Assembly (NCBI GenBank): GCA_040954595.2
Contig: CM082591.2
Location: 1,337,645-1,401,644, forward strand
Reading direction: 5' to 3'
DNA: 64,000 bases
Origin: Balanoglossus misakiensis
Taxonomy: Eukaryota > Animalia > Hemichordata
Part shown: positions 2,275 through 28,100 of the stretch, piece by piece
How positions within the stretch are numbered: the stretch's first letter is position 1
Layout of the letters: each line of letters opens with the position of its first letter
The notes under the pieces: model-generated
What the model was told of the DNA's origin: nothing
Seen by the model: only the letters and a program-made list of their open reading frames with translations
The model's database searches: none
Position numbers and translations under genes: made by a program

Positions 2275-2315
2275 GACATCACTTTAAATCTTCTACATTT
2301 CTGTTTCTTTCAAAG

Positions 2316-3532: not shown

Positions 3533-3680
3533 CATGGACCACTTTGCGGATAGAATAACGCAGGGTGTTGTGGGACAGTTTGCGTTCTGAGTGCGTGTGT
3601 TAGCCATGTACTAGACGCTATGTTGAACGCAAATTATACCATCATGCATTGCAGATACCCTATCCGCGAAGTGGTCTATG
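3533..3680. mobile_element. MITE-like element, copy 2
   Basis: Same TIRs and internal sequence as 2127-2274, with a few substitutions. Confidence 0.75.
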
Positions 3681-4184
3681 ATGATGTGGTCCTAATGAGT
3701 TAATTAAAAACAACTAGTTAATCAGTAAAATTGTTTTGTGTTCACATTTCACCTGCAGTGTGCAGTTTGCCCTGATTCTCTGTTGTCTCTAAGAAGGAAC
3801 TGACAAATATATGCCACTATATTTATAATGACAAAATTTAGTGACCAAGTCAGTTTGTAGTGTTGTTTGTGTTGTAAGGCTCCACAAATACAAAGGAAAA
3901 GGAGAAGATTAATGTGTTTTATCAATGAAAAAGGTGAAGTTGCGGTGAAACATTTTCAAAGGTTAAATCAAGTTGAATTTGAATAGGTGACATGTTTTCA
4001 ATGGATGACAGCAGTTAAACTTTGACTGAGTCCAGACTGACGTAATAAGATGTACATCACATGTATTTATTTACAGATCACATGACAAAGGTGCTTGGTA
4101 GCTCGAGGTACGAAAAACCAAACACTTCCTTTTCTTCTTCCCGGCGAGCACCAGTGTTCTTCAATCAGACCTAGCTCCAGTGGT

Positions 4185-4850
4185 GTACCTGGATTGAAGT
4201 TCTACCTTGTGAAGGAATCAACCACTCTGTTAAAACCATTTCAAGCCTCAGGTATGTTGTGTTGAACTTGAAATTGGTAATTTTCTGTCTTTTTCTTTCA
4301 GTCCTCTAACTCAAGCCACGCCTTTTTTATTTTCAACTAACAGAACCCAACACCACAAAAAGAATTCTATTGGAATAACTAAACAATTAAGCCATTTTGT
4401 CAACTTGAAAATAGACCTAAATGAAAAATGTCTAGGATTTGTATTTACATGCGACTAATGTCACTTATTTCAGATGTACCTGGATTGAAGCTCTAACTTT
4501 TGAAGGAATCAACCACTCCGCGACAACCGTTTTGAGAGGTATGTTCTACTGGAGCTGATAATTTATTATCTTGTTTTTAACTGAAAACACTGAATACATA
4601 TACCCCTGGTAGGTGACATGTTGTAAATTGGATGGTGGCCAAGAGATTCCAAACTCTGATATTGCATCTACAACACAGGTATGTGACGTGACAGCAAGTA
4701 CTGAGCAGCTCTGCGGTACTTGGAACCAACTCAGGAATTTCTATAATAGTGGGACCTAGCTACTGTAGCTTTGCTAGTGTACCCTGGATTGAAGTTCTAC
4801 CTTGTGAGGAAATCAACCACTCTGTACAATATTAAGAGGTATGTTGTATT
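4185..4850 (+). repeat. Three dispersed copies of a ~70-bp exon-like unit (probable 5' UTR exons of gene A)
   Basis: GTACCTGGATTGAAG.TCTA.C.TGTGA.GGAATCAACCACTC...AG|GTATGTT at ~4185-4260, ~4476-4546 and ~4779-4846, each ending in a splice donor. Confidence 0.6.
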
Positions 4851-6446
4851 GAAGTTGGTGCATGATTTACCAGTATTGTCTTATAATTTTTTCAGTCCCC
4901 AAACACATGGTTACCCCATGTAACAGAAACACACACCCTCAAAAAGAATTCTATCAGAAATAATTCTCTACATTTTTCTTCATTTGAATTAATTTATGAT
5001 TTCTAAATATCAAAAATTAGCAAAAATCATGAAAGTAACATTTTTATCAAAATTTTGAATGTCATATGCCACCTTCCAGACATGACATGGAATAATTTTT
5101 TTTAAAGAAGCAGATACTTGCAGTCTGTATAGTTTTGAATAACAACAGAAATTATGACCAGCAGAAGTCTCTGTAGAAGAGAAGTTTTGAAACAATTGTA
5201 CTTTCTGCTAATATTTTGCTTATTTTCACCAGTACTGAGTGCCTCTTTAAGAATCATTCCAGACTCAGTAAAATGCTTGATACTTGGTTATAACAATAAT
5301 GCACAGAATTTTACAGCAATCTCTTAATCTATTATTTTTGTAAATATAAAATTCTTGTAAAGAGATTTCTTATAATACCGGAAATGCTTACTTTTGAATA
5401 CAGAGGTCAATTTTGATAAAATTAACAATGTTAACATTTCAACATAATTCTCTCAAGAACCTGTTGAATAGATATAACTTTCAAATTAATGTATATTTTG
5501 ATTCTAATTTTCCATAAACAAATATCATATCAAACTTCGCTTGCATGATGAAAACCCTCTGCACAAACTCTGTAGGTAGACAGTGATTAACATAACAATG
5601 ACAAAGTGTGGCTCATATTTTGCCCTCCAATTAACAATTGACATCTTTCTATACAATTTCATTCAGTGTATCGACCAAGACGTTCACTACTTAGGTTATA
5701 ATCCAACAAACAGTGGTTTTTCATCGCCATTTGGGGGATTACCGGGGGTACTAACTACAACATTTGTGCAGGCCTAGTTTGGCTTATGTATCATTACACT
5801 GAAACATTGGCATTGAATAAGGCTGGAGGCAAATCCCTGAGGATGACACATGGTTAGTGTCAAACAACAGTTTAGCAATACATCTTTCAGCTTTCTTTTT
5901 CAACATTTCTCTCCATCTACCCTCAGTTGGAATTATGAAAGAAGATTATCATTGGTAACTGTGGTCTGCCCACTGCAACTATTTGGTAAGATAACATGGT
6001 ACCATAGAATAGATTGTAATCACACAGCCTTAGGTAATAATTACTGAATTCAAATTAATGGTCAAAATGTCTATTCTGTCACTCATATGGTACTTGGACA
6101 TAGTGTTTATGCAGAGTATGATTAATATTTAAACTATATTTGTTGAAGCCTGTGACCTCATTTGACCTTCCAGAGACTCCTTACTCAGTGTTGCAATGTG
6201 ACTGTATGCATAGATATGCAAACAAACAAACAATCAATCAATTGATGTCATATGCAGAGTATGGTTAATAATTAATCAGACATGTGTAGCCTGGTTTCTA
6301 ACAGACTGTGACCTCACTTGACCTTCCAGAAACCCATTACTCAGTGTTTCACTGTGACTATGTGCATGATCAATCTTAGGGGAAACATTTGTTACATCTG
6401 ACATTCATGTATATCCTTGCTCATACTTTCTCCTGGTAGAAACAAA

Positions 6447-9400
6447 ATGTCAGAACCATCTGCAGCACTGGTTGTATTGAAATCATGGGACTTGGAGGCA
6501 AAGACCTCCCAACCAACTCAAGCTTTAATCAAACATCTCAAAGAAAACACACTCCAGTCTGAGAACATTTCTGAATTCCACTGTACCACCCTTGAAGTTG
6601 AAGTGAGTGAAGAACAAAAGAAAGATGCAGAGAGTGTTCGTGCTACTTTGATCCCAGCTACAAAAAGCGAGTGGTTGGATCTTCATGAAGACCCCCCTGG
6701 AGTACACTGGCTTGTTAACCATGGTACACACTTCCCAGACTTGAAGGGACTGCAAAACATCAAGCATGTAGTCGGATATTCTCCAAACACACACAAAGCA
6801 GCAGCTACAATTCGTAAAAGTCTCTTCCCAGAAGCCAAACTTCACCAACTCAGTCTTCCTGAACCACCACCCGTGGCAGCATTAATGGTCATGCAAACCT
6901 GGCAGACAGAATCAGAAGATCAGACAACAACACCAAGTCACCAGCTTGTCACAAAATTTCGAGAAGAAACCCTGAAGTCTGAGAATGTTTCTGAATTCCT
7001 CTGTACTACCCTTCAAGTTGAAGTGAGTGAAGAACAAAAGAAAGATGCAAAGAGTGTGAATGTCACTTTGATCCCAGCTGTAAGAGACAAGAGGTTGGAA
7101 CCTCATGAAGACCCCCCTGGAGTACACTGGCTTATTAACCATGGTATATACTTCCCTGGACTGAAGGAACTGAAAAACATCCAACATGTAGTCGGATATT
7201 CTCCAAAGACACAGAATGCAGCCAAAGCAATCCACGAAAGGCTCTTCCCTGAAGCCAAACTTCATCAACTCCATCTTCCAGATCCACCTCCTGGAGTATT
7301 ATTTGTGTATGACGACTGGAACAAAGAAGATTGTGGCTTGACTGGGTTTCACAGAACTCTCGTACAAGATTTCTGTGCAAGGAAAGTCAAAGAAGGAAAA
7401 CCTGTTAAAGCCTACTCCACCTTTGATGGTGTCAAAGCCAGTGACGACCAGAAGGCAGATGCTGCCAAGTGTCGGGTTACATTGATTCCAGCACAAGAAG
7501 AAGAAGAAGACAGAACTGCAGAGCCAGAAGAAGATCAGCCACATTTAAAATGGTTGACGAAATATCACGAAATCTACTACGCTCACCTCAGACAGCTACA
7601 AAACATCAAGTATGTTGTTGGTTATGCTCCGAGGACTGGATTCGCTGCTGCAAATATCAGAAAAAAATTGTTTCCTGATGCAGAACTAGTGATGATCAAC
7701 CATGCCTATGAAGAACGCAACTGTCTGTTGAAACAACCAAAAGGGAAGTTTAGTGAAATGATGCTGAAGCTGGCCAGTGAAGCTGACATCATATTCTCAA
7801 TTGGTCCAAGTGTGTATGAGCATTTCCAGAACGAATACCGGGCTACCTTTGATGGCAGGGAACTACACATGATCCCTCATGAAGAGATTTTTCCCAGACC
7901 TGCTGAAGTCTTTTTCAAGAAAGACCCAACGTTCCTAGATGGAGTGACTACTCACAGCATACTGACATACGGGCAGATTGATACACAAGAAGCCTTGGAC
8001 AGATGTGAGACAATAGCAGCTGCTATTGGAAGTGCAGCAAACATGGTGAAAGACTTTCACAACAAACTTCTGAATTGGTCAATACGGGGAGCAGGTGAGG
8101 CTGAACTGAAGCATATTCTACAGCAGATAAACAGCAATTATGTAATGGCATATCCTCACCCAGATTACTCAGAAAAGACCTTAATGATATCAGTGCATCA
8201 ATCTCACTGTTGTCTTCCCGTCTCTGTCTACAAGGACTATCCATATAGCGGTTTAGAATCTATAGCAGTTGGACTACCAACCTATCCTGATGAATATTCC
8301 CAGCTTGGAAAGTTAGTCAAGAAATACTTTCCATACCACGCAGACAAATTTGTAGTGTCACACTCATCTGATAAGATTTCGGAGAAGATAATATGGAGTG
8401 TCAAGAACACCAGGTTAGCTTTTGAAGAAGCTAAGGAGCTGAAGGAGGCTTTCATGGCGTGTGAAGATGTTGATAAGAGTTATGCCACATTTGCCACTTT
8501 GTTGACACCAAAGGGCAGACAAACTGTAACAGGTATGTACAGTGTACACTTTTAGTAAATTATATCCTGTGTCTAGTTAATGATACATACTGGTAATTGT
8601 TGCTTTATTTGTCAATTTCAAGACTAAATTTGGTAAAATAGTGAAACCTGCACAGACATGCATGCATCACTGAGACACCATCTTATTTCTAAAAAGTAAA
8701 CTGAGTTCTGTTGTGCCTACAATTTCTCATTATCTGCAAATCACCACTTAAAAACCTGTTCATTTCTAAAGTAATTAATTTTAAGTGACTACAGATATTA
8801 GTAAAATCGAGTGGAGTGGTTGGGAGTAAGTACTAAAGCAGCCAAAACCTACAAAAAATCTAGTGTTGATTTCACAAGCTAAAGCACGTTCTTTCTCCTA
8901 TCTTCAGCTGACACAAAAATTGCAATCCACGTCCAACTGGATGAAAATGCCTACCAGCAGTATCAACCAGAAAATGAGGGCCAGAATGAGGAAAGGCAAC
9001 AGGCAGCATCTACAGCTTGGAACAACTGCAAACAACAGTTGAAGAGAAGAGCATCTGATGTGGTATCCAACAGTGACGACATCAACAAAGTCAAGGAAGC
9101 CTGCACTGACAAACTGGGTAAAGTGAATATACACATAACAGAACAAAAACAGGGTCTCTGTTAATCACAGCCAACATGCGTAGACTTTATAATCTCTACA
9201 GATTGAGGGGAAGCTGTCTTCATTTAAGAAATTTAGCCAAGGCATTAGAATCAATCTTGATGACAGATGAATTAAAAGACGAAAAGAACACAGCTGAATT
9301 ACCACTACAGTTGATAGCAACATATAACCAAGTTAGTTACATGAGGTTTTTTCTTCAGATTTGTCCTAATTGGTTTAACCATAAAAATACTACAATCTAA

Positions 9401-12400
9401 CGAGATAAATTAAAACCATCTACAGACAATTGGTTGCACATCTTAAGGCACTCTATCAGGTGCAGTTAAAAGGGATTAAGATGATAATATTAATTTACAT
9501 TTCTACAAAATGTAACATACCAGTATATCAGATAATTTAAGTTTCACATCTTTCTAGCATTTCCAACCCCGCCAAAAACATAAAACATTAAAAGAAAAAA
9601 TGTATGCAAATCACACTGAATGTTTTACTAACTTGCAGGAGATGGTTGGGGAAATGCCCTGACTTCTTTACCACAGGGAAGATATAGGAAGGTTTTTGTG
9701 GCCATAGTTATAATAAATTAAGGTTTTCAACTAAAAATAGTAACCTGATTTGTTGTGTATTTTGCAGGCGAGACCTTATCCAAGTTGCTGTTCCTTGAGA
9801 TTGATCCGACACGAGAAATCCAGAAGTCAGTTGATAAATATGCACCTCTGATACTCAACAGTGAGCAGTGTAAAAGACAGAAAGGAAGACAGTGTGACAT
9901 CATACAACTTACAGTGAAAATGACCGAGAAAGTTCAGCATATCCTATCTCACAGACCTCAAGTCTTAGAGTTACTAGGTGTTAGAAGGTTCCTTATGACT
10001 GACACAGAAAGGACTGATATCAGTGACTCAGGTAATATAGAGTGATTTTTAATGGTGCATGTAACTCTTTAGGAGCAAAATGGAATCCTTACTGTGGTAC
10101 TGGTACTTTTACAAAACAGCCAATCAATAATAACACCAAACTTCACTGAAACACATATATTTTGACAACCATAGTTGCAATGTCATCTTGCAGTGTGAAT
10201 AAGAAATTCAATGTGATGCTGTTATTGTTCTAAAGCTGATTTTGAAGTGAAAAATGAAAAATACACATGGTTTTTGTCTGTAAAAAGTCAAATTCATCTC
10301 CATCAAGAGGTCCATCCTTTTTGTCAAAATCTATGTGCAGCTAGTGCTCAGCTGTTATGTACCAGTATTCTTTGAAATAGTTACTAACAAAAAGCATGCA
10401 ACGTTTATACAGTATTCTGCAATTATGAAATGCAGGTGTAAATACAGGAAATATTTTTCTCATTCTCAAAAGTTTTTACTCACGGTGAACAATTATCGCC
10501 TTATACCTGTCAGTAATATTTTCTATATCAATGCTGTAAAACGGGTTATTTTCACGACAGGAAATTTTCACAAGTAAATATTACCAGGTTTAATGCTTTG
10601 GTCAAATTTACTTCACGGATTTAAATAATAAGGTGAAAGTAAAATTTCTACTCACATCTGCAGATTGTTAAATGTCAACCAGACATTTAAGGTGTTACGC
10701 ACCTCGAAATAAAAGGTCGTCTGATCATGTTGAAATTAATACTGATGATACTATGACTTCATAAATAAGTATTTTGGGAGGGTCATCATATTTTTTTCAT
10801 CATTATAGAATCTAAACTTACTGAATATTTTGTTTTTAGCAATTTTATCTTATTTAGTATGATAATCGCACATCAATACAATTGTTAAATTAAACACAGA
10901 ATTGCCGCAAAATCCACTTTCATATATATATATTTTTTTTAACTTCTAGACTTAAACTTTTTTTAAAACTTGATAGATACCTTGTTTGATATATATCAAA
11001 CCAATTTAAGGCAAAAAATACATTGTGTGTACAAAAATAACTTCACAGCACTACGCTAAAACTTTGTTTGGAAAACACTGGAAATACAATTTAACTTTTT
11101 ACACTCTGCACAGAAACCTGCGCTAACAACTAACATGATTGAGGCGTGATATTCCTTAAGGAGACAAAGTCTCTCTTTTTTAGCCTTTTTTCGTGAATTT
11201 GTTTGATATGAAAAGCTGTTCCTGTTGTTTGACTGCTTGAAATAGAGTGGATTCCAATAGCTGCAATGTTTATTTGTCAAAGGAAACAGACTATGTTAGA
11301 AGTACAAATGTACTGTGTAGTTCATTTCAGCTAGATATCACACACAAAATCACCACTTTCATCAGCAAAGGGGTAATTTGTGATTCTTTTTTAGGTTATA
11401 CACTGACATTATATTGCACAGTGTGTGACTTTATGCAAGTATTCCCTGTATTCTTGATATCACAAAAAGGTAAAAAAACTGTCCCTTTAAATAATTATTA
11501 AATCTACTTCATTTCAGATTTGGAGGCTTTTATCATACAGCATGGCACGCCAGTTTTTTCCATACCAGCTGCATCTATCAGCTTACAAGCACAGAGCTTG
11601 CTCCTCTTTGAAGCTAGTTCAAAGTTACCCAAAGAACAGTCCTTGCAAGCAGAAAATATGAGTCTAAAACAACAGTTGGATGGGGCCCTGATAGAGAAGT
11701 CCAAAATTCAGACTGAGTCAGTTGAGAATAAGAGAAAGCTAGTTGGAGAAATAACTAAACTGCAGTTTGAGTCAGTTGAGAATAAAAGAAAGCTAGTTGG
11801 AGAAATAACTAAACTGCAGACAGAGAAAATGATTCTAGAGAATCAGTTGAAAGAAGCAATTCAGGAAAAGTCACTCTTAGAAGAGCAGTACAAACAGGAA
11901 CTTGCAAGTGTTGAGAAAGTAGCTGCCATACAACTTATGGATGTCATTTCCCTGAAGCAAAGATTGGAAGAATCAGACCCTAGAAACATCGAAGAGTTGG
12001 AATCTAAACTCGAACAACAAGAACAAACCATAACTGAACTCCAGGCAAAATTATCCAAAATCCAGGATGATCAATCTGACTCTGAGCTGCAACTGAAAAC
12101 TGCTAAAAATCTTCAACTGGGAGAAGATGCAACATTGGAAACTGAACAAGGTGAGATTGAGATTTAGTAGTTTCATAATTTTATTGGTATTTTAAAAATG
12201 TTTTTTTTTTACTTATTTTTTTTTTTACTATTTGTTGATTGTAATGTTAAAATTAAGCCTTGTAAATAGTAAATCTAAATGATATCGATGTACCTTAATT
12301 GATAAACCTTGAAAACACAAGAAGGATAAATTATCAGGTAAAGGCATGAGCATGCACAATGGCTCAGTTTTATAAAGATGAAGGTAGACAAGTTGCAATT

Positions 12401-15400
12401 CCAAGAATGTTGCATTTTTATTAGTGAAGTAATTTATTTATATTTTAGGACATTCAGTTCTATTTGTCCGCAGTATGTGGCCATCACGAGTTGGAGTGAT
12501 TAGTCAACTTGTGAGTCTACCAGTAGGCTTTGCCAACAAGACAAAACAACAATTTTGCAAAGCTCAATCAGGATATTTCAACATGCTAGCAAAAGAACAG
12601 GAAACTGTAGATGACACAGAAAACAAAAACTCAACTAAAAGTTGCTTGTATATAAGTTGCTCTTTATCCTAATTTTTGTAGCAGACAGTGTTAGAGCATC
12701 AGTGCCTGGGGAAGTGGGACCTACACAGCATGATGTGAAACGTCGAAGATGCCTGAGTGAAGGTGATATACCGGTAGAGTCAACCAAAAGTGGTGCACGT
12801 GTGGGCCTTGATCTTTACAGCTATGGCCGAAGAAGCTCCTTGCGATCAGTTGGTGAAAGTGAAACTAAAATGGAGGTACGTGATACTATGTACTATATCT
12901 CATAACAGTCCTGATTTACCACATGCAGATCCTATACCAAGCAGTGATCAACATGGGCCATCTGAAACACCCAAAAGGGAACTTTTTGACTTGCCCATAT
13001 TATGCCCATCCCATTGAAACCTCACACACCAGCATGTATTTATTCATGCATGCATATATCGACCTTTGTATCAGTTTTATTTAGAGGTTTTAAACGGCTA
13101 GCGAGAGTATTTGGTTGAGGATAGACAGACAGACAGACACACACACACACATACATACATTCATACATACACATAGATACATACATACATACATACTTAC
13201 CTACTTACTTACTTACATGCGTGTACGGTCTCAGACATAACATGTATATGTAAATAAACTTAAATTAATGAGTTCCAATCTGTATTTCTTGTACTCATAT
13301 TGATCCATACAATATGAATTATGATCAGTAAACAATTTATTGGGTGATAAAATACTTAGTTGTATAAAATGTGTCCAGTAAACTTGTCTGAGCGGAAGCA
13401 TGTATTAAAGGAATGTAATGAAATTCCTTACTACATGTACCATCATTTTATCTTTTTACAGAGAGAGGAATTGTTTGAAAACATGCAATTCATAAATGAG
13501 AGTCTTCATTTGAGAATGAGAAGGAGGCTACCATTAACTCCAGAAGATATTTCTGAAAGTGTGTGTGCCGTTCCAAATCGTTATCCAATACCAATCTTTG
13601 ATGGTTCCTGTCTGAAGAGTGTATCATTCACTGACGAACTACCGGTCAATTACAGTTATAGAAACTACACAACAGGGATCTTTGATTCTAGAGGTGGCTA
13701 CCTGTCAATCAAAGGAAGCAGCGTAGAACTCTTTATACCACCAGGAGCAATTGAAGAAGGAAGGCAACAGGAGATCAGTATTCAGCTAGACCACAAGACA
13801 GAGAGTGCTCCTCAACTCGCAGAAGGGGAAAGTCTTGTCTGTCCAGTTGTTGTGTGTCGTCCTAATGGTCTGTCATTCAAACAGAGAGTGGTGCTCAGTT
13901 TCCCTCACTCTGCACGTGGCGCAGATTATACACTGAAGCCTTTGATTTCAAAGCAGACACAGGAAGATCAACCAACTGACTATACTGACCTATCAGAAAG
14001 CCAAGATGGTTTGTGTCTTACTACTGATGACCGCTGCATCATGTTGCTGGACCACTTTTCAAACTACACTGCAAAAGGAGAAAAGGTCTTTGAAAAGGAA
14101 ATACTAGTTATGATTTTTGCAGACCTGCGAGATGAAGATGAAGTAAAATTACGAATTTGGTTTCTAGATGAAGACAACAAAGATGTAAGATAATTCTATT
14201 TTTATTGTCATTGCTTTCCACAGCCATTGCCCAACCCATAAGCAACCATGATTTCATCCACAGGGATTAAAAAATTCGCATTATGAGGGTATGATGAAAA
14301 TACCGCAAAGTATCATCACAAGGACATTAGTGACACGTATCGCCTGATGCATAGCAGAGGGCGATGCGCGGAACTATATGTCTGTTAGATTTTTGCTTTG
14401 CATATTACTTGGCTATCAAAACACTGGTACAATCGCCTTACACAGTGAGCAGACATCTTTCCTTATTTGTTAACAATGGAGTGAGGGAAGAGGGTCTTGA
14501 AACCGTCTGCAGTGAAAGTGCATACCTATACACGGTGAGATTGGGTGCCTTGAAACTGATGACGAATGGAACGGGGCTTCCATACGGCATGTTTAATGCA
14601 CGCAAAATTCTATTGTTCTTCATGGTGCCAGATGTATAATAATTCGTATTATTTCCATCTGCAGGAAGTATTGGAAGAGGAAAGAAGATTAGGTGGAACT
14701 GAAATTGATGCACCAAGCCCATTTACTGCCCATACATCTGGTGGAGATGTACAAGTGAGATTAGAGTGTAATGAGGATTGGAAAGCATCGAAATCATTGC
14801 TGGTATTAATTCTTTAAAACTTTGATAACTTTGCTCAAAACTGCATAAACGGTACCTTTGATAGTATTAACTAACATGCATAATTTGTCACCCATTATTT
14901 CAAGAAAATGCATCCATCCATTCAGTATATAAATACAGTATACAATATAATATAGACAATACAATACTGTAATAGTACAGTTTGATACAGTACAATACAG
15001 ACATATCGAGGTGCCACTTTTGTCAAACTTGTCAATGCTTTAATTACAGATCACATATGAAACAAGTTGAATTCAACAAAGCTCTTTCATTTTTATTTTT
15101 CTCAGAACATTCCAATGCGAGGAATTATGTCCAGACGAATGATGCCCCACAGGTTTATCATAACAAGGCAATCATTAACCACCAGATTACGTTTAGATGT
15201 TGGTGTAGCTCAACCAGGTTGTGTTAATTCTGATGAAATAGAATTTCCAATTTCTGAAAGAGTACCCCAAGTAAGCAGTCTATCAAGTGATTCATATTGT
15301 CATTACTTTCTATTACACTTGAAGAGACAAATATTTGAAATCTCATTTCAAAAGTACAAGTACATAAAATATGATGGGAATTGCATTTTTATTGTTATTG

Positions 15401-18196
15401 TTAACAGCTTCATTGAAACCAGAGTGAAATTAATTTACAACAGTAAGGCCACAGTAAGTAGATTCTTTGTTTTCCATTGGTGCACTGGTAGGTTTTCGAA
15501 AAACACACAAAGTTTTCTTGCAGAAATTTTCCACATCGATATTGTGTCACAAAAATAAGCCATGTCTTTTATTTTGCAGCAATCTTTGTTCAGTCATATA
15601 ACTATAAATTATGTGGTGATGTAAAGTAGTGTCAAATAATTTCAGGTATATGCATATAGCATGAGGAACTAAAATGTTGGTAGATTGTTTTTGTGTGTGT
15701 GTGTTTTATAACCGCTCAACCTACCTTTCAGGATTTTTAGTGGACAATGACAAAGAATTTACTTACGGTGCTTTGGACTAAGTATATATGTTACTTTTCA
15801 AAAACAAGTCTGAAATGCAAGTTAAATTATTTAAGTTTAGTGAGGTATGCAAATGTAAATACAGGTATATACATATAAGGTATACCATAATTGCATTGTC
15901 TTAAGTACTAATGACTGATTAGGTAACACATCATCTGCTAAGGATCAGTTAGCCACCATTACAAAACAAATGTATAGGACAGAAAACCATGTACAGTACC
16001 TGGTTGGATTTCTATTGCTGCACAAGCCTACTGAGTTGCAAGATTTATCTTTAGAGAGCAATTATATTGCCAAGAGAATTTAAAACTTATAATTCTAACA
16101 ATTTTGCTAATTTTATTGATAAATTTTAATTTTGCAAAGTATTCCTTTTTCCACAGAGTATGGCTGCAAATCATATGCATCAGGCTCATACTGAGAGAAG
16201 AAACTCTCCCCGCGTCCTACCTGCCCTACCACATGGTCTTTGTGTTGCAATAAGTCAACTTATGGATCTGCAAGATCCATGTGACTGTGACTGGCGACTT
16301 TTAGCTGACAAGGTGACGTTGAACGGCAAAACACTAAAACACTGTGACCGAACACTTCTGGAACAGTTATCACATGCCCGCAGTCCAACGTATCAGTTAT
16401 TGAGTATCTGGCAGTTATCCAGGAGAGGGTTTTCTCTGCAGCTTATAGAAGAGCTTAGAGATTTGTTCCAGAGTATTGGTAGAACTGATGTAGTTGAATT
16501 ACTGCAGACTTTTATCAAGCTGTGTAGAGAAGTTGGTGTGGCAGAAGCAGAGGCTGCTGTTGAACCTGAAATCCATGCACAAATGTGCAATCCAGGGTAC
16601 TACTCAACTGGTGACCAACAGCTCATACCTCAGCCCCAACAACTTTGCAGCCATCTCAGAATGGAAGAACAAGAAAATAGGAGAGGACCAGCAATGCCGT
16701 CATCTGTGCCAATTGTTCCACAAAGTCCACATCAAGGAACCCGAATATCAGTCACAGCAGAGGTACACAATTATCCAGTTAATGCAGGTCCACCGGTGGA
16801 ACATTCATCTGGACAAACTCCCCTCTCAGAACAGATACCCGCTTCAAATCCTACCCCACTACCCATTCCCAATGCCATGGAGTTTCCTCCAGACCGAGTG
16901 GAAGCTCCGGGAGCTCAGTCACAACTTCCCCAACAGATGCACGGAACAGAGGCAACAGTGGAACCATCAAATGCCTCACCATTTTGTTCACAGGGTCCAA
17001 ATAATCCTTACATGCAGTTTAGTGATACTAGTATGCAGAATCATTCATCTGTAAGAAAACGACTGCTCACAAGGCCATCAGAACTGACACCTGATGATGG
17101 TGAACTTGAAGATGATTATGTTGTCCCCCAAAAAAGACAAAACTTGGCAAATGACATTAATAATGGTGAAAGTGTACCTATGACTGTGAATCATCAGCCA
17201 GATCGACAGAATGCATACCGTCGTAGTATGACATTTTCAGAAGAAATACAAGAAGGGAATCTAGCAGCACGCCAATGGTTGTTTTCAGAAGGAGAACACC
17301 CTCCACATCACACAGAAGCACTATCATCTGATCGGAGAGGTGATCAGTATGTCTTTGAGGGAAATGGAGAATGTGGTCACATCATGGGTGAAGCATCAGA
17401 GCAGTCCTCAGTTGGTCCAGAGATTTCGAATTCTGAATATATTGAAGAAGGTGATGGCAGTCAAACTGAGACCAATAATGATTCTAACACAGCAAAGCAC
17501 GATAACGTGTCAAGGGGACGAAAATGTGCAAATAATATGCCTATGCTAAATCATATGATTGATGAATTACAGATATGCAAGGAGATGGGAGATTCTGACC
17601 CTCGCAATGAGTCAGGATATTATTCACTTGCTGGAGATCCAACAGATGCTCTCACAAGAAATCATAATCCTGGTAGCATTGAACACAATCCATCAAATAA
17701 TATGCCTATGCTAAAGGGAAATTCTGACCCTCGCAATGAGTCAGGATATTATTCACTTGCTGGAGATCCAACAGATGCTCTCACAAGAAATCATAATCCT
17801 GGTAGCATTGAACACAATCCATCAAATAATATGCCTATGCTAAAGGGAGATTCTGACCCTCGCAATGAGTCAGGATATTATTCACTTGCTGGAGATCCAA
17901 CAGATGCTCTCACAAGAAATCATAATCCTGGTAGCATTGAACACAATCCATCACAAACAGGTGGTCATGCCAACAGTCCAAGAAAGCAGTATAGTGGCAA
18001 TGTGTCTGACTTCAACACAGGAGAACAAGCAGTTCAAAGCGTAGAAGATGGTGACGAGAGGAAAAGTTGGAGTGCATCTGAAAAATCTACGGATGAATGT
18101 ATCAACTCAACAAATGATTCTGACGTGGAAAATAATTCAGAGTTAGAAAGTAATAATACAACTTCAATGGATTCAGAAGACGCACCATTACCTTGA
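6447..18196 (+). CDS. Gene A: multidomain immune-type protein with GT-B/GT4-like region (3 N-lobe repeats + C-lobe), coiled coil, ZU5-UPA, Death domain and disordered tail (~2150 aa)
   Basis: Exons 6447-8532, 8908-9117, 9768-10031, 11518-12150, 12682-12875, 13462-14184, 14665-14802, 15106-15270 and 16157-18196 join in phase at GT-AG. GT4-like motifs: VLFVYDDW, MINH, ADIIFSIGP, GLESIAVGLP. ZU5: FDSRGGYLSI..SSVELFIPPGAI...CPVVVCRPNGLSFKQRVVLSFPHSA...DHFS. Death fold: DWRLLADKV...SPTYQLLSIW...LRDLFQSIGRTDVVELL. Confidence 0.8.
6460..7295 (+). repeat. Coding tandem duplication, 420-bp (140-aa) period, GT-B N-lobe-like unit
   Basis: TCTGAGAA..TTTCTGAATTC...GAAGTGAGTGAAGAACAAAAGAAAGATGCA at 6558 and 6978. 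A third, more diverged unit follows at 7295-7700. Confidence 0.9.
12449..12545 (+). pseudogene. Degenerate remnant of the start of gene B's GT4-like exon inside a gene A intron
   Basis: ag|GACATTCAGTTCTATTTGTCCGCAGTA... versus gene B 23063 ag|GACGTTCAGTTCTATTCGTCTGCAGTA...; truncated after ~100 bp. Confidence 0.6.
15445..15772. mobile_element. Degenerate TIR-bounded non-autonomous element in a gene A intron
   Basis: Left AAGGCCACAGTAAGTAGATTCTTTGT and right ACAAAGAATTTACTTACGGTGCTTT form an imperfect inverted repeat. Confidence 0.4.
17588..17953 (+). repeat. Coding tandem repeat, 129 bp (43 aa) x ~3
   Basis: G(D/N)SDPRNESGYYSLAGDPTDALTRNHNPGSIEHNPSNNMPMLK repeated, nearly identical at the DNA level. 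Confidence 0.95.
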
Positions 18197-18265
18197 GAAC
18201 AAACAGGCCTTAACAAACTTTGTGCCCAGAAGGTGTCTGGAATGCACCTTTTTGCTAACTTCACT

Positions 18266-18620
18266 GCCGGAAAGTGTCTGTTTAACCTTGGGAATATCCA
18301 TACCATTGCTCAACATCTCATTAAGTGGTTGCTTATGGTGAAACGTGAAGACTGACCTTCAATTCATGTGTTCAGGTAAGATTGGTATGTCTAAGGTGTG
18401 TATGAGCATGTGTGTGTTTGTCATACTCCTATGTTAATGCATGAACTACAACTCAGTATGAGCATGAACATTTGCAGCAACATATATTCTCTGTAATGGT
18501 GCTAAATGTTTTTTTTCCAGACATCCATATTTCTGGGATATACAGAAGTGTCTAGATTTCCTTGGTGCTGTATGAAGACAACTGGACTGCCATTGACTGT
18601 ATGAAACCATACTTCTAAAT
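18266..18620 (+). pseudogene. Decayed kinase C-lobe and KEN exon remnants, paralogous to gene B, directly after the gene A stop
   Basis: 18266-18376 matches 27214-27321 (FNLGNIHTIAQHLIKW...KRED*, CGA>TGA stop, indels). 18521-18575 matches the HPYFWD exon at 27480. From ~18577 it matches the end of the last KEN exon (28657-28699). Confidence 0.85.
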
Positions 18621-19680
18621 GGTCAACCATTTCAGTCATAGACAATAGCGTCCTATTGTTTGTAACTGCAAAAACAAATTGTAACCATTTTCACAAGGAA
18701 AGGTCTTTCCAATACAACGTGAGTATTTTCAAACAATTTTCAGGTGAAATACCTGAAAGAGACAATTTATTATTCCTGGTGACAACTATCATATTCCTGA
18801 TTTTTAGTTCTATACACCACTTTTGAGACTCTTTTATTTGTGTTGTTTTGTTTCTTTCTTTCTTATATTCCATGTATTCTTGATATCTTGTCCCTTTATG
18901 TCCCATGAACTGCCATGTTAAGCATATCTTTCCTTTTATACTGTGATATTAGTTATCAGTACTTTGAATCTGTGAAGATCTGAATATAATGTTTTGTGTC
19001 CTCTTGCAATAGTTTGTAGTAAATGAGTACAGTACCTGTTTATTATTCAACTTTCTCATATTTTAATATTAACCACAATCAGAGGTTGAGAGTATGTTTG
19101 TGTATACCAATCAGTCAGCTTACTTAAATGGACCAATCTAAGTTTGAATTGAAATTTTAAATGGCAGCTCATGGGCTTTGATGGTTTAGATAATTGTTTA
19201 ATAATGAACACAACAAGAGTGTTATGTACCACATCAGAATTTTTGTTTTAGACTTTTCTTTTGTCATTTTTTTTTCTAACAATGTTTATCATGTAAGACA
19301 GTTTATTTGCTTATGTTCTAGTCCTTATTATTATTTTATATTTTTTATTCATTTAGAAATCAAGAAGTGTCTAAGTTTTGTCAACTTTTGCCAATTGTAA
19401 GTTCTATGGATGCACTCTAATGCATGATTAGATGGTACAATTCATGTCCATACATATTGGTGTTTTCAACCTTTCATGTTGCAGACACACTGATTTATTT
19501 CGATGAACATGTGTTTACCATGAACACAATGTAACACCTAGGTATAAACTGTGAATGCTTTCTTCCTTTGCTGCTGTAGGAAATAAAATGTGTTGAACAA
19601 AGATGTCAAAGTCTTTCATTATCATCAAACAAGTTGTCACAGACACAGAGTATGCAGGTAAGGCCCCAACCAGATTACAG
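18577..19680 (+). repeat. Segmental duplicate of gene B 3' end/3' UTR (28657-29792)
   Basis: Long colinear near-identity; the ORF track shows the twin spurious ORFs MFNNEHNKSV... at 19194 and 29297. Confidence 0.92.
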
Positions 19681-21554
19681 TGCGTCATGACCTGAATTGA
19701 ACCTGTAAACTTTGAACCCTGAAGCGCCACAATGAACACTGAAATGAATACATGAACTCAACATGTACTGTCTATTAACCATGTGCACTTTTATTGAATT
19801 TGAAGACCGCTTTTACTCTTCTTATATTATTAAGGAACAGTACATGGTGGAATTTAGCAGTGTGATCTAACAGGAGAGTGTAGGGGTAAACAATTGGATC
19901 GATACACAAAATTTGGATTGTGAAAATCAATTTTGGAGTTTGTCTGAAGACTTCCAAAATATAAGCTTTCAATGTTAAAAGTTTCTCTCTCTTTTATCCT
20001 TTACTAAGCAATAACATTACTGTAATGACTTGCATCAGTATACAAGAAAAGAAACACTGGGCATATCATTGGGGAGACTTTGCAATGCAATACGACCTAT
20101 TTTCTTGGTAGGATAAGGGGCCTAATTAGGAGGCGGGGCTTTGTTCATATACAATTCTGCAGGAGCTAGACGTGCGCACACAGAATTTGGCCTATTAACT
20201 TCATCAAGACTGGCTTATTCGTGTCTGATTGGTCGTCATTATGTCGTCGCTATCTGCCCATTAGGTAAGCAGGATCACACTTATCACAGAAAAAGTTGGT
20301 GTAAATTTCAACAAGCAAGTGACGTGCCTCTGAAATTGCCAGCCTGAGTGATATTGGGTCGCATGTAACTTGTAAGTTATAAAAGTGGTATATCGACTAG
20401 ACTCCTAGTGCACAGGGCCAGGCACTATAGAGTTATCTGTAATTTTATGGCTATTTTTCAGCGTGTTAATGAACACGGTAAATGATTTATGGATGTCCCT
20501 AGTATTGGTTACCTATTTATAGAAATGCATTGTTATATCAAGGGAAATCCCCTTCCCTCCCCCGTAGAATGATTGGGTCCAGAGAGGAATACATTGTCGG
20601 GTGCCCCCTCCCCCCCCCCCCCACCCAGGGGGAGGCATGAAACCATGATTGATACACAGAACAAACAGAATGAAAAGTTGTCAAAAGTTATACATAGCGG
20701 AGCTTTAAATTTGAACAACAACCAAATTAAATTTTTGCCCCAGGTGTGGTCTTAGAAATCCAGGACCAAATTGTTGTCTACCATTTTGTGACAACTTCAT
20801 ATATAACTCGGTATGAGTGCGGGACGAAACTTGGCATGGCACAGTGATTATAACCTAACTCTGCTATGCACTGGACTCCTTGTAATATAACCCCTTCCTG
20901 AAAAATAAAGTGATTGCACAACAATAAAATGCACCTGTGAAATATGAGCAGTTATACAGAACAGGTCTTGGAGCTGTAATCTATTTTCAAAGTTCTACAT
21001 GTATTTGTTTATCTCAAGCCCTAATTGAAACCAATGCAGATTACCCGCCATTGCCTTATTTGGGCACAAAAGTACCATGGAATATTATCTGAAATCCAGG
21101 GCAGGTGGCTTGTTGTGTGAGGTCATGTTAAGGTGACATCACATTTGCAGCTGATTGTTTAATCTGCTTGCAATTTTAATCGACCTAGTTCACAATTCAA
21201 ACAGCTATAATCTGCATTTTATGTTAAAAGCTGATTTCATTGTTTTTCTGTCACGTGAAACTCAACATTGTGAACTTTGCAAGACTTAAGTTAAAATTTA
21301 GTGGTTTTGTGCAAACATATCATTAACAACTAAAGCCAGCTATCATTGTTGAGAGGACGAAGTCTGTATCTTGACTCATTTTTGGTCCACTTGAGTTTTT
21401 GCTTTTGTGGTCGCGACAACACAGTGAGACACCATGACATCAGAGAGCCGCGTGCGTGTAAACACATGGTCAAAATTCACCTTTGACATCTGAGTCAGCC
21501 GCTGTACAGTCAGGTTTATTATTAGTCCCTGCAGCACTGGTTCTGTGGGTGTGT

Positions 21555-21565
21555 GAAACCGAAAG
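21555..21565 (+). promoter_or_regulatory. ISRE/IRF-like motif GAAACCGAAAG upstream of gene B; kB-like GGGAAATCCC at 20542-20551
   Basis: Matches GAAANNGAAA about 550 bp upstream of the gene B ATG. Motif match only. Confidence 0.3.
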
Positions 21566-22109
21566 AAACTATACAGTTTTATATCAAAGGAACAGGTGTG
21601 CAGCCTACTACTTCCTGGAAGAGTCTTTCTCAGTATTCAAGAAAAAAAGTGAATCATTCTACAAACAATTCACCTGGTTTATTTTGTTTTTCTTATCTCT
21701 ACCATATAGAGCTGAACACACCAATATATCACAGAAGGTGTGTTTTAATCCTGAGCCTGCAGAAGAGTTCAAATTGGGTGTTCGTCGATAAGTTTCAAGC
21801 ATAAACAGGCAAGCCATTACTGGTTATACCATGTGAGTGTGACTTTACTCTTTGCACCATTTTATTTTGACAAAATGAACCCAGAAGTTTTCTTGTCCAG
21901 CTAAGTTCAGAGGAGATATGTGAATCAGTAATTTTTATAATTTAATATCCAGAATAACTACAGTTGCTTGAGACAAGTCGGAATTGTCAAAAGGATCTGT
22001 ACTTATGTGTGTGTGATGTGTGCAGCATACAATGTATTCTAGCTGTCAATGACAAGCCGTCTGTCATTTATTTTTTTGTCTGTTTCAGATTGTGTAGTTT
22101 TAGGCACAC

Positions 22110-25100
22110 ATGATGGAAACCAAAATTGATATATTTAAAGGTTATATCTTCTCTCTATCACAAAAAATTTCTAACGGTAAGTCAAATATGATTTTGATCA
22201 CACGAGCAATTTACTACAACTCTGCTTTAATGACTGTCTATGACTCTATACATTTTTAGTGGTTAGCGAATTGTTTTAGCTCCCATTTAGTGTGTAAAGC
22301 AGTGGAATCAGCTATGATCATGCTCATTATTAATGCTGGTTCACAAATTCTGTTTACAGAACAACTAAAATCACTGGTTAAGTTGTCCAAAGAATTGAAT
22401 TCAAAGCCTATCACTCAGAGAGAAAGCGAGTCAATCACAGATCCATATGATTTGTTTGAAAAACTCACCAGTCACGGTCATCTCAGTAAAACTAAATGCC
22501 AGGTCTTGGTACATCTTCTTGAGAAAGCCAATTGCCAGGATATCGCTGATGAGGTTGCGGCAAGGTTTGACCTTGGGTTCAGTCAAGAAATAACAGACCA
22601 AGAGCTAAAGAAGAAGATAGAAGAGATGGATAGAAGTACAGCAGATATTCATATAGTTCAAGCAACTGCTGCCTCTGACTTTGCATCAGTTTCACCTCAC
22701 CAAGTTACCAAGCAGCCGTCTCGCGTTCCACTGCAACCGACAGATCAAAACCAGTCTGCACCAGGTCCACTACAGCAGTCTGCAGGCCAACAGTTTTCTG
22801 TACCAAACCCATCACATCCCATTGTCCACCAACAGTCTGTGCCAGGTCCATCACAACAAGTATCCATGGAGACAGAAAGTAGAGCACAGGATGAGATAGA
22901 CACATTCCCTGGAATAGACCATAAAAGTAATCCCATTTGCTACATTGTATTATAAGTTTTTTCATTTTTGTTTGATATTGTGTATTATCTATCTGTTGGT
23001 CTGTCAGTCTGTCTGCCTATATAGTGTCCATTTATGTATTTATTTGTTTATTTATTTATTAGGACGTTCAGTTCTATTCGTCTGCAGTAAATGGAATGAG
23101 GAGTTGGACAGAGTGTCTCTTGTCAATAAAAGTCTCGCTGCATCACTAGTCAAACAAGATGTGCCAACATACTCAACAACTCTGGGCGTTCGTGATTGTA
23201 CAATTACTCTAGATGATGTGACTGGAGTGAATGTTGTCAGTCCTGACAAGCAAACACTGAATCGACTTACTGTTCCTCCAAAGATTCCTGCTATGGATTG
23301 GTTGGGCGCTAGTCATGCCAGTTTTTACCCACACCTGAAGACTGGAATTCCTCATCTTGATCTTGTGGTTGGACACTTTGCAATGGGTAGTGACAGCCAG
23401 CTGCTGAATGCAGGCTTAGCTATAAAACAGGACATTGCCAATGATTCCAAGTTCTTCTTCATGAATCACGAAATTCCGGAAGAATCTGGTGACAATGCCT
23501 TGGAAAACAGTGCATATGAGGTTGCAAAGAAGGCTGATGTCATCTTCTCTGTGGGTCCTTATGTATATGCACATTACAGTAACAAGTATAAGCCTTTGGA
23601 ATCAGTACAACACATCTGTTACTATCCTGCTCTGAATGAGGAATTTACAAGAATGATGTTGCAACCATACCACGAAGGCAAACAACAAATCCTGACAATA
23701 TGCAGCGTGGACTCAGAGGATGACTTCTCTCGATACGACGTGGTTGCCCTGGCAATGGGGAAGGTTGGCAATAGTTTCAAAAATGTCCACACAACTGTTC
23801 CAGTATGGAAGCTTTATGGTGTGAGTGAAACTGTCAGTGCAAAGTTTCGGGACTATCTCATCCAGAAATCAAAGTGTAAGGACCTGCACATTCCGCAACC
23901 TTGTTCCTCTGTTACTCTGCGCCATCTGAAACTTGCCATGCAGCAGAGTGTCTTACTTCTGGCGCCGGAGAAAAAAGATCCATTCAACTTTGCAGCCTAT
24001 CTTGCTATGCAGGCAGGTTTGCCAGCTTTAGTTCCAAGTTGTTCTGGAATTTACCTTTTTCTGGAAAAGCTTTATGCAAGGGACGACTACAGCAGCTATT
24101 GGTGTGTTGACACTGGTCTCTATGACAACACAGCTGACGAAGACAGCAGCAAATGGTCAGAGAAGATCATCCGTAGTATTAATGCCAAGACCTGTGGGGT
24201 TTCCTTCCAGAGAGCCAAAGAACTTCAAGAGAAACTGAGAGCTAATCCTGAAATAAAGAAATCCCAACAACAGTTTCTGGAGAAGTGTCAAGAAGTGCTG
24301 AACTTTGTGAATGGTAAGTTGGCTGTAGATAAAAATTGATTCCATCTCAGTTGAAGTTGGAATTAGTGCGTGTCAGCACTTTCCCTGAGGCAAGTCTGCT
24401 CAATTGAGCCATGAAACTTGGAACAGAGCTGTATATGACACAGGCAATACGGTAGTTACAATAAGCGCATTGCTCTTTGTCTTAATTTTTGTAGCAGACA
24501 GTGTTGGAGCATCAGTGCCTATGGGACCTACAGAGCATGGTGTGAAACGTCGAAGATTCCAGAGTGAAGGTGATCTAGAGTCAACTAAAAGTGGTGCACG
24601 CAGCAATGATCGGCGAACCTCCTTGCGACCAGTTAGTGAAAGTGAAACTTCAACAGAGGCGTTACCACCATCTCGCAGCAGTCCTGCTTTGTCACAGAAT
24701 ACAGCAGATCCTTCACCAAGCAGTGATCAATATGGGCCTGCCAAAACCATCAAACAGGTATTGTTAGACATCATTATACCGTATGCTCACTCATTGTAAA
24801 CTCACACCAACATGTTGGATACACGCATGCATACATCCACAACCTTGTTGTTTTCTGTGTGTTAAGGCTTTAAATTTATGTATATTCATTTTCAAAGGAA
24901 TATCTATAAAGTTTACAAAGTTTGCAATACAAACATACTCAGTACAATACATAACTTACATGTATACCATACATGTATAGTACATTTCACATATCATAGA
25001 CAATAATTTCGTTTGTGGAAACTCCCTTGCACATGTGATTTTTTAAATCAATTTAATGTAATTTGAATTCACTTTTCAGATACCCCAAATCAAGAAAGAA

Positions 25101-28100
25101 ATTCAGAAGGCAGTAAGTGAAATGTGGGGAGACAAAATAAGAAGCCTACGTGATCTTCCAGCAGAGCAGTGTGAAGTGATTGAAAGTACTCAACTTGGAC
25201 AAATTAAATTCCGTCGAAAATCAAAAGAATTACGGATTGCCTCAGGGTAAGGCTGCATGTTGAAGTTTTAGATCATCTGGGATCAAACAGATCTTTATGG
25301 TTATCATGATTTGTATGTAGCCTGTTGTCATAAATTAGTTTGGGGATGTTTTCTATCCATCCTCTATTTCGCTATTGACATGTCACTATTCGAATTACAC
25401 ATGACTGCATGGACTGAAATTTGTAGAAAGATTGTAAGATATTCATGTATATCACAACATAACATTAACTTAGTATGTGCAGTACAACTCGCCAGTAGAT
25501 TACTGCAAGGTGACTAACAATAGACCATTTCATGTCGAGTATGTAAACAAAATCTTGCATGAAGCAAAAACTTATTTAATTATTCACATTTGCTCCAGCT
25601 AGGTTATGAATCCAGGAGTAATTTGATTCATGTCTGAAATTGTAGATGTCACGGGACTGTTGTATACCTTGGGTATTGTGCCAAGAACGACTGTGGAGTA
25701 GCAGTGAAGTGTATCCCTCATATTGATGATGAAGTGGCCAAATGCATACAGAGCGAATGTGATGTCTTCAATAAACTTGATACAGAGGTTGAGAACATCG
25801 TCAGATGCTATGTAAGTAATATATTTTAGAATATAGAACATTATATATACCAGGTATGTTGAAATAACTTGAATGCATACTGTCAATGCATGCCATCTTT
25901 TAATATCGTCATAAACATCAATACACACAATTGCCAGTAGTTTAAGTCACTAGAATCCTGGTACACATAGACAAATACAACACATTACTAGGCCATGAAA
26001 ACAATAGCTGGAAGTAACTGACATTAATTGGAAACCGAATTTTGATCCGTAGCTCAATATCAAATTGGTTGTATTTTTTTGTAGGACACGATTGAGAAAG
26101 ACAGCTATACATACTTAGTACAAGAACTTTGTGAAAAGACCTTAAAACAGCATGTGGAATTGTTGACCAGTGACGGTAGACTACAGAAGGAAGCAAAAAG
26201 AATGATTATTGGAATGTTGAGTGGTTTGAAAGTGCTGCATTCATGCAATCCACAGATTGTTCACAGAGATCTCAAAGTAAGAAAAAATTTATTGTTTTGG
26301 AAATAGTTACTAGTGTCAAGCTTATAAGCATTGTGTGAGTTGAGTCAGCATAGTTATTAGACAGAACATTATTACCATAAATACAAATGATAAAAACAAC
26401 ATACTAGAACTCAACTATTAATACATGTGCATACATACATGCAGTTTTGTGTATGTACTCTTACAAATGTACCGGTTTATGCATTTCCAATGAGTATGTC
26501 TTTTGCCAGTCACAAGAAACTTCACCGTCTGTGGTCATGCCTTCATCCAAGTGTATTTCATTTTTCAACAGCCTGAGAATGTTCTGATTGATTGTGATGG
26601 CAATGTGAAGATTGCAGATTTTGGTATCTGCCGTCCTGTTGATGTTGATGCAACTGCAAGCACATTTTTGACAAGTGGTGCAGGTAAACTCGGTTATTAT
26701 AAAACCTCTGCAATTGAGAATCCTGCAACTATCAACCCAAAGAAGTCAAGGTTCAAAAAGTCAAAATGACTCAAGAAATGAAGACCCATATAAGGTTGAA
26801 ACATTTGTCAATATAAAAAAAAATATTAATATATTCTTCATTGTCTTTCTTTGTACATGAAGGTAGTATGTGTTGGCAAGCAACAGAAGTACTTGAGGGA
26901 TCAATTAATGATGATGGTGGTCCAGATGAAGTGAAACAAGTACACTACAGTCACAGAAGTGATATTCAGGTATAAGCCATTATCATAATTGTCTTGCGAA
27001 CATTTTAAAACTTAATTGTGTGAGCAATTAACACTTAACATCTGTTATGGGTCTCTGTGCAATTTGAATTATATAATATGGGCTGATAGGTGATCTGTAT
27101 GTGTTCTGATTGTTATTCTTGTAACAGGTTGCAGGGATGTTGATGGCCTACATATTATTAGGTGGTGTGCATGCATTTGGGAAAAACCTACGCATGGTGC
27201 TAGATAACATACCGGCAGGAAAGTTTAACCTGGGGAATATCCATACCATTGCTCAACATCTGATTAAGTGGATGCTTAAGGTGAAACGTGAAGACCGACC
27301 TTCAATTGATGAAGTGTTCAGGTAAGAGTGTAGACCTGTCCATATAAGTCTAAGACGTGTGTGTGTGTCATAGTTGCCAAATACTCCTATGTTAATGCAT
27401 AAACTACAACTCAAAATGAGCATCACAATTTACAGCAACATATATTTTCTGTAATTGTGCTAAATGTGTTTTTTTCCAGCCATCCATATTTCTGGGATTC
27501 ACAGAAGTGTCTACATTTCCTTGTTACTGTAGCAACTGAAGTGGAATGCCACAGCAGGTATTAATCCTTAACCCAAATTTTGCACCATTTTATCACAGAA
27601 AATTGGGTGTTTAAAGTGCTTAACTTTCCAACATACTGTGTGTGACATGGACACACATCTACCATCTACCATTTTTGACATCATCATCATCATCACAACT
27701 ATAATTTTAATATAGACCCATCACAATTGAACATACAATATCTGCGTAGAAATGATGTGAATGGAAAAATAACAAACTTATAAAAATACAAATAATGTTT
27801 ACGATTGTTAAGTATTTTACAACTGTATTTACAGTTTATATAAGTTTGTGTGAGGGTTGATCTATTTATATCTTCTTTTTCTAGTGGAGGCCTTCAAAGT
27901 TTCCACACTGAAGTAAATAAAGATTGGGTGAGTTTTAAAACTAATTTTTACTTTCTATTTTATTGTTGAATTGTGGAACTGAAAGTCAATCAGCTGTGGT
28001 TCATACATGACTTTATTTTGTGTCCAACCCTGTCTCATAAATGGTTCTTTTATGTTGTGGGAAAAAGTTTGTGAGGAATGATTAGCTCTTAACAAAATCA

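Follow-up and report, generated by a model that had tools for sequence, protein, structure and literature searches.

The window analyzed here is a stretch of 64,000 nucleotides (nt) from the hemichordate Balanoglossus misakiensis (GenBank assembly GCA_040954595.2, contig CM082591.2, positions 1,337,645 to 1,401,644), and all coordinates below are positions within it. Two genes with a GT4 domain lie on its forward strand, namely, gene A (6447 to 19680) and gene B (22113 to 28699). We describe both and conclude, with a probability of roughly 0.6, that three unrelated gene families contributed to gene A, a chimera put together by recombination at the DNA level and likely read as one transcription unit. 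Protein comparison placed the nearest relatives of all parts of both genes in Ptychodera flava and Glandiceps talaboti.

Gene B was modeled with 14 exons, all introns being GT-AG and no internal stop being present. Its product of 1,152 amino acids has the order DED-GT4-linker-kinase-KEN, and its 3′ untranslated region (UTR) runs to ∼29792. Domains were assigned by Pfam profile search, which matched DED, GT4-conflict (PF20706, 76.3 bits at a cut-off of 26), and Pkinase, followed by a KEN-like end. The protein shares 46% of its residues with P. flava P0001, and 41% identity was seen between its kinase-KEN part and Glandiceps P0003, a protein with Ribonuc_2-5A whose top PDB sequence matches are IRE1. 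Ribonuc_2-5A was found in two of the three B-type relatives scanned, and the architecture as a whole is kept in Ptychodera and Glandiceps (five relatives). The kinase motifs VAVK, HRDLKPEN, and DFG are present, and the KEN part has K-N-C-T-D-H, which we take to be a form of the R/K-N-x3-H motif; K-N-x3-H occurs in gene B only, since the His is not kept in the five relatives aligned. Searched singly, the KEN exons gave no Pfam match and no relevant PDB match; zinc-alpha-2-glycoprotein, the sole match of a single KEN exon, was judged to be due to chance.

A self-blastn of the window found four colinear stretches shared by the two genes: 12433 to 12495 with 23047 to 23108 (83% identity), 12657 to 13063 with 24470 to 24840 (72%, with gaps), 18280 to 18592 with 27223 to 27551 (83%), and 18575 to 19680 with 28656 to 29792 (88%). 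The weakest of these, at the start of the GT exon, reached a score of 69, compared with at most 36 among 200 dinucleotide shuffles; for its exonic part alone, the score was 47, compared with at most 33 among 500 shuffles. These matches bear out an earlier sequence-only reading of this DNA, according to which the genes share a decayed GT-exon start, a linker exon with its intron, and pieces of the 3′ end. Only an intronic scar of ∼50 to 60 nt is left in gene A of the B-type GT exon; it lies within 12433 to 12495, comprises the acceptor and first codons, and corresponds to 23047 to 23108 of gene B, the remainder of the exon having been deleted. The B-derived linker exon and the start of the following intron occupy 12657 to 13095. 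Here the predicted exon (12682 to 12875) ends at a new phase-0 donor, GAG/GT, ∼100 nt upstream of the ancestral donor position (∼12977), which now reads GG, and a new in-frame ATG at 12870 stands in the context AAAATGG directly before it. Upstream of the new donor, the linker has three indels (+6, +6, and +18), all of them multiples of 3, and the exon had no convincing match in the relatives compared.

The B-derived 3′ end of gene A (18280 to 19680) consists of the end of kinase exon 10, intron 10, part of exon 11, a deletion, the last KEN codons, and a 3′ UTR with AATAAA at 19582. Broken kinase and KEN pieces followed by the same UTR had already been recognized from the sequence; the correction is that an internal 1.1 kb, equivalent to 27535 to 28656 of gene B, is deleted, with the ends joined at a short similar stretch and the frame lost. 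Counted over substitutions, the 3′ UTR is 95% identical to that of gene B, compared with 86.5% for the linker exon and 80% for the linker intron. What gene B supplies to gene A is only a 65-codon linker and a 3′ UTR. As to membership in the gene B family, gene A has the B-derived linker exon and 3′ end, and a B-type GT4 is absent from its protein.

The front of gene A (6447 to 12150) comes from a many-copy family of proteins with GT4, a TRADD-N-like domain, and a coiled coil, referred to as family 1 here. We sampled this family via the protein matches of exon 1, all 35 of which are P. flava proteins. That exon (6447 to 8532) encodes duplicated N-terminal half-repeats and the family-1 GT4-conflict domain (PF20706, E = 4e-37, 128.5 bits, against the same cut-off of 26). 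It is followed by exon 2 (8908 to 9360) with the TRADD-N-like domain, by an exon at 9768 to 10031 whose fold has no assignment and which is present in 9 of the 35 family proteins, and by the coiled-coil exon (11518 to 12150), which ends in a phase-1 donor and is present in 23 of the 35. Exon 1 contains an internal in-frame duplication of 330 nt (6542 to 6871 and 6962 to 7291, 83% alike), and the coiled-coil exon contains one of 54 nt in two copies (11714 to 11819). Upstream of the gene A ATG, three repeats of ∼80 nt (4183 to 4857), 79 to 82% alike and each placed between AG and GT, are likely repeated 5′ UTR exons of the family-1 gene. To compare the window with other data, we aligned to it the contigs of three runs, X1, X2, and X3, all from one sample. 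Over the front of gene A, X1 gave many divergent contigs with a summed depth of 1,400 to 5,000, compared with ∼40 elsewhere, including gene B, so that family 1 is a many-copy family in this genome too, with the caveat that contig depth is not copy number. An X3 contig of a family-1 paralogue aligns on 9776 to 10031, and an X3 paralogue contig ceases to match at 12151, from where it runs on into different sequence.

None of this front resembles gene B. Positions 3400 to 12150, including the real GT exon (6447 to 8532), gave no blastn match to gene B at an E value of ≤0.01, and the two GT4 domains share only 25% of their amino acids, which excludes recent alleles. A FastTree phylogeny of 42 GT4 sequences, rooted at the midpoint, separates two families, one joining gene A with P0008, P0009, P0010, and P0019 (support, 0.997) and the other joining gene B with P0001 (0.996). 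Over amino acids 5 to 1059, gene A is 44% identical to P. flava P0008, which then continues into NHL repeats; 15 of the 35 listed P. flava matches carry such repeats, the others having TPR or NB-ARC/TPR, and neither ZU5 nor Death is listed for any of the 35. Gene A has the TRADD-N-like and coiled-coil exons and no DED exon, and gene B lacks those two exons. The domains also differ at the C-terminal LEA motif, whose acidic residue (Glu) is absent from the GT4 of gene B and its five B-type relatives (6 of 6) and present in gene A and in all 35 family-1 relatives. We take this residue to be the second Glu of an EX7E-type motif, with a presumed role in donor binding. By analogy with the ankyrin domain of RNase L, its loss suggests that the GT4 of gene B might act as a sensor. 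The idea that gene A derives from gene B as a paralogue with a common chassis, nothing but the output domain having been exchanged, can appeal to the B-derived linker and 3′ end and to the presence of GT4 in both genes. It had been proposed without taking into account exon 1 and the rest of 3400 to 12150, and we regard it as highly improbable, given the GT4 divergence and separate clades, the exon content, the LEA residue, and the reduction of the B-type GT exon to a scar.

The domain that follows GT4 (segment 9152 to 9355) is present in 33 of the 35 family-1 relatives. For a model of the corresponding P0008 segment (predicted local distance difference test score of 94), Foldseek ranked TRADD-N first (E = 0.026), and VIA-align against the TRADD-N structure 1f3v gave a Z score of 7.5 and a root mean square deviation of 3.4 over 111 aligned residues, compared with a Z score of 6.1 for the best unrelated entry. 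A Pfam scan returned no TRADD match at an E value of <0.01, and an ESM Atlas search with the frameshifted domain of gene A (see below) returned no usable match. Taken together, these models provide moderate evidence for a TRADD-N-like domain, and the ranking agrees with the hemichordate GT4-TRADD-N pattern reported in the part of PMC8195603 consulted here.

Between the B-derived pieces lies a block of ∼5.1 kb (13.2 to 18.28 kb) with four exons on the forward strand. These are a ZU5 exon (13462 to 14184, phase 0; Pfam E = 1e-22), two UPA exons (14665 to 14802 and 15106 to 15270, both phase 0; a weak match, E = 0.03), and an exon with the Death domain (E = 2e-7) and a long tail (16157 to 18196, stop at 18194 to 18196). 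ZU5, UPA, and Death thus stand in the order known from PIDD. The open reading frame has no stop over 1,022 codons, and its splice sites are in phase. Near the ZU5 end, LDHFSNY at predicted amino acids 1325 to 1331 contains an HF/S motif (HFS, 1327 to 1329); among 149 ZU5 matches, HFS occurs in 17 and HFT or HFC in 74. A tblastx comparison of 13230 to 18250 with 20300 to 29900 gave no match at an E value of ≤0.01, and blastn gave only three matches of 22 to 34 nt (E = 0.49). Along with the Pfam matches, this agrees with the earlier claim that the ∼5 kb between the remnants is unrelated to gene B and encodes ZU5-UPA-Death. The closest counterpart is P. flava P0043, a gene model for a stand-alone ZU5-UPA-Death protein, which is 60% identical over 343 amino acids across all four exons (67% for ZU5 and 53% for UPA); the alignment with P. 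flava P0044 (DBB-ZU5) starts with the opening residues of the ZU5 exon. A GT4 match at an E value of <0.01, to either GT4, was found in 0 of 150 ZU5-match proteins tested, and a search of longer proteins by word index, a weak method, matched the ZU5 exon to just two TIR-ZU5 proteins from amphioxus. Each of the three parent families has P. flava members listed on a contig of 62,999,500 nt, with accession numbers far apart. In Glandiceps, P0055 (XP_077998854.1) has a Rel homology domain fused to ZU5-UPA-Death, a further hemichordate partner of this mobile module.

A second, diverged set of X1 contigs runs along the block, with differences in introns and exons. At 80% likeness it gave no cover on 12238 to 13114 or 18248 to 18604, a mere hint that this copy has no B-derived flanks. 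One diverged contig skips 261 nt at the tail repeat of the last exon (17587 to 17953; 129 nt, in frame, 2.8 copies, 99% identical), which marks the expansion of the repeat as recent. Short high-copy interspersed repeats lie in the introns of gene A (10534 to 10685, 14300 to 14640, and 15500 to 15560), with many loose contig ends.

On the 5′ side of the block, homology to gene B fades by ∼13095, and the breakpoint lies in or beside a compound microsatellite (13115 to 13227, called by Tandem Repeats Finder), on both sides of which exact contigs end. On the 3′ side, the breakpoint falls at 18278 to 18280. Homology to gene B begins at 18280, and an X1 contig with only the letters of the window starts at 18248, which puts a branch at ∼18278, two bases before that homology, if k was 31, as we take it to have been. 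An exact X2 contig (17894 to 18604) bridges this junction. These data bear on whether separate loci were wrongly joined during assembly, at the poly-T tract (12198 to 12237) or at the microsatellite: no listed contig bridges either repeat, both of which were skipped by the contig comparison, and the 5′ module belongs to a many-copy family. A chance misjoin would, however, hardly leave colinear pieces of gene B to either side of the block; the exact X1 contigs flanking the microsatellite have similar depths (36.5 and 44.5), and the 3′ junction is bridged. An X2 contig also joins exact 9176 to 9806 to exact 12946 to 13114. We rejected a deletion allele as its explanation, because the joint reads GATC/GATC as a Hi-C ligation would, and it weakly suggests that the two pieces were ligated as neighbors. 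An assembly artifact, which the sequence-only reading had named as what could overturn it, is accordingly improbable.

Every piece of gene A has kept introns, which points to recombination at the DNA level rather than retro-copying. The intron loss that would mark a retro-copy was not found: the block has three internal introns and one upstream, the B-derived pieces retain the start of intron 4 and intron 10, and the second copy of the block also covers introns. That gene A was built from a gene B copy, the block, and a family-1 front is very probable, taken as DNA history alone. Gene B would have been duplicated in tandem, and the kinase exons of the copy (24870 to 27222 in gene B) would have been replaced by a genomic block from another ZU5-UPA-Death gene, with one break at the microsatellite. 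A duplication followed by insertion of ZU5-UPA-Death had been proposed before; to this we add that the kinase exons were lost to the block and that the linker and 3′ end were kept. A family-1 gene would have replaced the DED and GT exons of the copy, bringing its coiled-coil donor (phase 1) to the phase-1 acceptor of the linker, and the new phase-0 donor of the linker would meet the phase-0 acceptor of ZU5. These three rearrangements may have come in any order.

A nine-exon model of gene A with GT-AG introns is in frame and predicts 2,150 amino acids; it requires splices from 9117 to 9768 and from 12875 to 13462. Run X3 looks like RNA, in that its contigs stop at the exon ends 10031 and 12151 and one joint skips the 5′ intron of gene B. 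Its depth peaks at 18.6 to 19.9 kb, at the 3′ end; one exact contig lies on the last exon (17455 to 17671), and those at 18869 to 19582 would differ from the gene B UTR at 12, 12, and 3 aligned sites. The block is therefore likely transcribed into the B-derived UTR, and since its first exon is an internal one of phase 0, a promoter farther upstream is likely required. We consider it probable that gene A is a single transcription unit ending in a 3′ UTR borrowed from gene B. No joint from 12150 to 12682 or from 12875 to 13462 appeared among the contig rows listed, the sole RNA-like run being shallow; X3 also left the ZU5 exon uncovered and listed no fusion joint, which we did not count as evidence. 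The predicted product would tether a GT4 enzyme and a coiled coil to a PIDD/CARD8-like module, and it would cleave itself at HF/S, freeing a UPA-Death fragment for death-domain signaling. We hold a functional full-length protein of this kind to be less probable than not.

The same DNA history is compatible with the absence of any functional fusion. Gene A would then be a decaying family-1 gene with a 780-amino-acid product, upstream of a dead gene B copy, and the block would be either a transcribed pseudogene or a stand-alone adaptor starting from the ATG at 12870, with the linker exon as 5′ UTR. The ATG context just 5′ of the new donor and the stand-alone P. flava model P0043 favor such an adaptor. 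Exon 2 speaks for decay, because tblastn changes frame between 9118 and 9151, inside the domain that 33 of 35 relatives keep, and read-through meets a stop at 9162 to 9164, ending at 780 amino acids; splicing at 9117, a cryptic donor in frame, would halve the TRADD-N-like domain. This allele may thus be decaying. The frameshift sits at a run of five A's, however, and could be an assembly error or confined to one allele; no indel near 9148 was found among the contig rows listed, with 47 further rows outside that list. Both donors that the 2,150-amino-acid model requires are weak, with scores of 4.6 (9117) and 4.1 (12875) on a small matrix built from 19 training donors, which themselves score 6.7 to 13.1 in-sample; an out-of-phase donor at 12762 scores 8.2. 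Comparison with the second copy of the block, over the 29 listed coding positions only, gave 25 differing codons, of which 18 are nonsynonymous, so that no purifying selection is shown. Set against this are the intact reading frame of the block with its splice sites in phase and the intact phase-1 donor and acceptor that join coiled coil and linker, and we regard the absence of a fusion as a serious though less probable explanation than the chimeric transcription unit.

Apart from the frameshift, the weak donors, and the nonsynonymous codons, several further points weigh against our interpretation of gene A. The sole paralogue contig seen to leave the coiled-coil exon enters a different exon and not the linker. 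X3, which is not on record as RNA, is RNA by inference only; it gave short contigs with little depth, and all runs come from one sample. The other allele could account for the second copy of the block, contig depth being no measure of copy number. Gene B pieces that have diverged unevenly may differ in age or have been gene-converted, and the in-frame linker indels may predate the fusion.

Taking both genes together, we tentatively propose that enteropneust GT4/TRADD-N genes, which are predicted immune genes, may be rebuilt by intron-to-intron DNA recombination, with dead tandem copies as landing pads that contribute a ready-made 3′ UTR and a linker exon able to convert the phase. Gene A would then be young and expressed, coupling a GT4 enzyme to a ZU5-UPA-Death output that cleaves itself, and in its RNase L/IRE1-like neighbor a GT4 lacking the motif Glu would serve as a small-molecule sensor for kinase-KEN.

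The rest of the window holds other genes and repeats. On the reverse strand, a tandem cluster of three TNF-family ligand genes (30507 to 43080) has TNF domain exons at 30510 to 30773, 34848 to 35102, and 39716 to 39955 and transmembrane-like first exons at 37222 to 37695 and 42613 to 43080. A 148-nt element is duplicated at 95% identity (2127 to 2274 and 3533 to 3680), one copy being intronic in a conserved-looking gene that ends near 3055; this gene, without a Pfam match, presumably resembles NOSIP. Two similar unannotated genes or fragments (45709 to 46676 and 49190 to 49982; 71% between 46398 to 46506 and 49820 to 49928) have no Pfam match. They are followed by a methyltransferase gene on the reverse strand and a RabGAP-TBC gene on the forward strand (51637 to 57800) and by an 87-bp satellite (59599 to 63989; 50 copies, 98% matches).

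Among known systems, gene B resembles IRE1 and RNase L in having a kinase followed by a KEN-like domain; unlike them, it has DED and GT4 in the place taken by the luminal domain in IRE1 and by the ankyrin repeats in RNase L. The front of gene A resembles P. flava proteins with GT4, a TRADD-N-like domain, a coiled coil, and NHL repeats, e.g., XP_070561900.1 (44% over amino acids 5 to 1059 of gene A), from which it differs in its output, since the family ends in NHL (15 of 35), TPR, or NB-ARC/TPR and neither ZU5 nor Death is among the domains listed for the 35. The rear is similar to PIDD1, the FIIND of CARD8 and NLRP1, and the cytoplasmic module of UNC5 in its ZU5-UPA-Death order with HFS near the ZU5 end, where an autocleavage motif has been described for PIDD and Nup98 (PMC3210808, in the part consulted). 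Compared with those proteins, gene A has a single ZU5, no leucine-rich repeats, CARD, or transmembrane part, an N-terminal GT4 and coiled coil, and a tail of ∼550 amino acids, and its cleavage is a prediction.

The nearest published account is that of Kaur et al. 2021 (PMC8195603), and a literature search, outside which most subscription journals lay, found nothing closer. The parts of it used here describe lineage-specific expansions of GT4 and TRADD-N (DEDD2 clade) in metazoans, with shuffled partners that include UPA-ZU5, and propose retro-copying as part of the cause. Gene A shares with these expansions the hemichordate order of GT4 and then a TRADD-N-like domain, with highly variable fused domains. 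In the GT4 table of supplement file 6, GT4+ZU5 is given for a single protein, from Acropora, and ZU5+ZU5+GT4 has many entries. An order of GT4, coiled coil, and ZU5-UPA-Death is absent from 60 of the 66 ZU5 places of that table; the eukaryotic GT4 table has no "kinase" or "STYK" row, and "UPA" and "NHL" do not occur in file 6. These negatives hold for file 6; beyond 2 of the 96 ZU5 places of file 4, a TRADD-N protein with the order of gene A could be listed in file 4 or file 13. Chimeric genes are to be expected in expanded invertebrate immune families, and the gene A allele may be a pseudogene. Where the published account deals in protein architectures, however, gene A shows breakpoints, three nameable parents, and introns in every part. 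With breakpoints, scars of replaced exons, and introns of all three parents kept, the locus tests the retro-copying idea directly and in this case points to DNA recombination. It also shows how intron phase constrains the outcome, through a phase-1 donor, a borrowed linker, and a new phase-0 donor. Systems of this kind are known; what is new is the visible breakpoints between three parents, the retained introns, and two testable architectures that our search did not find in print, GT4-coiled coil-ZU5-UPA-Death and DED-GT4-kinase-KEN.

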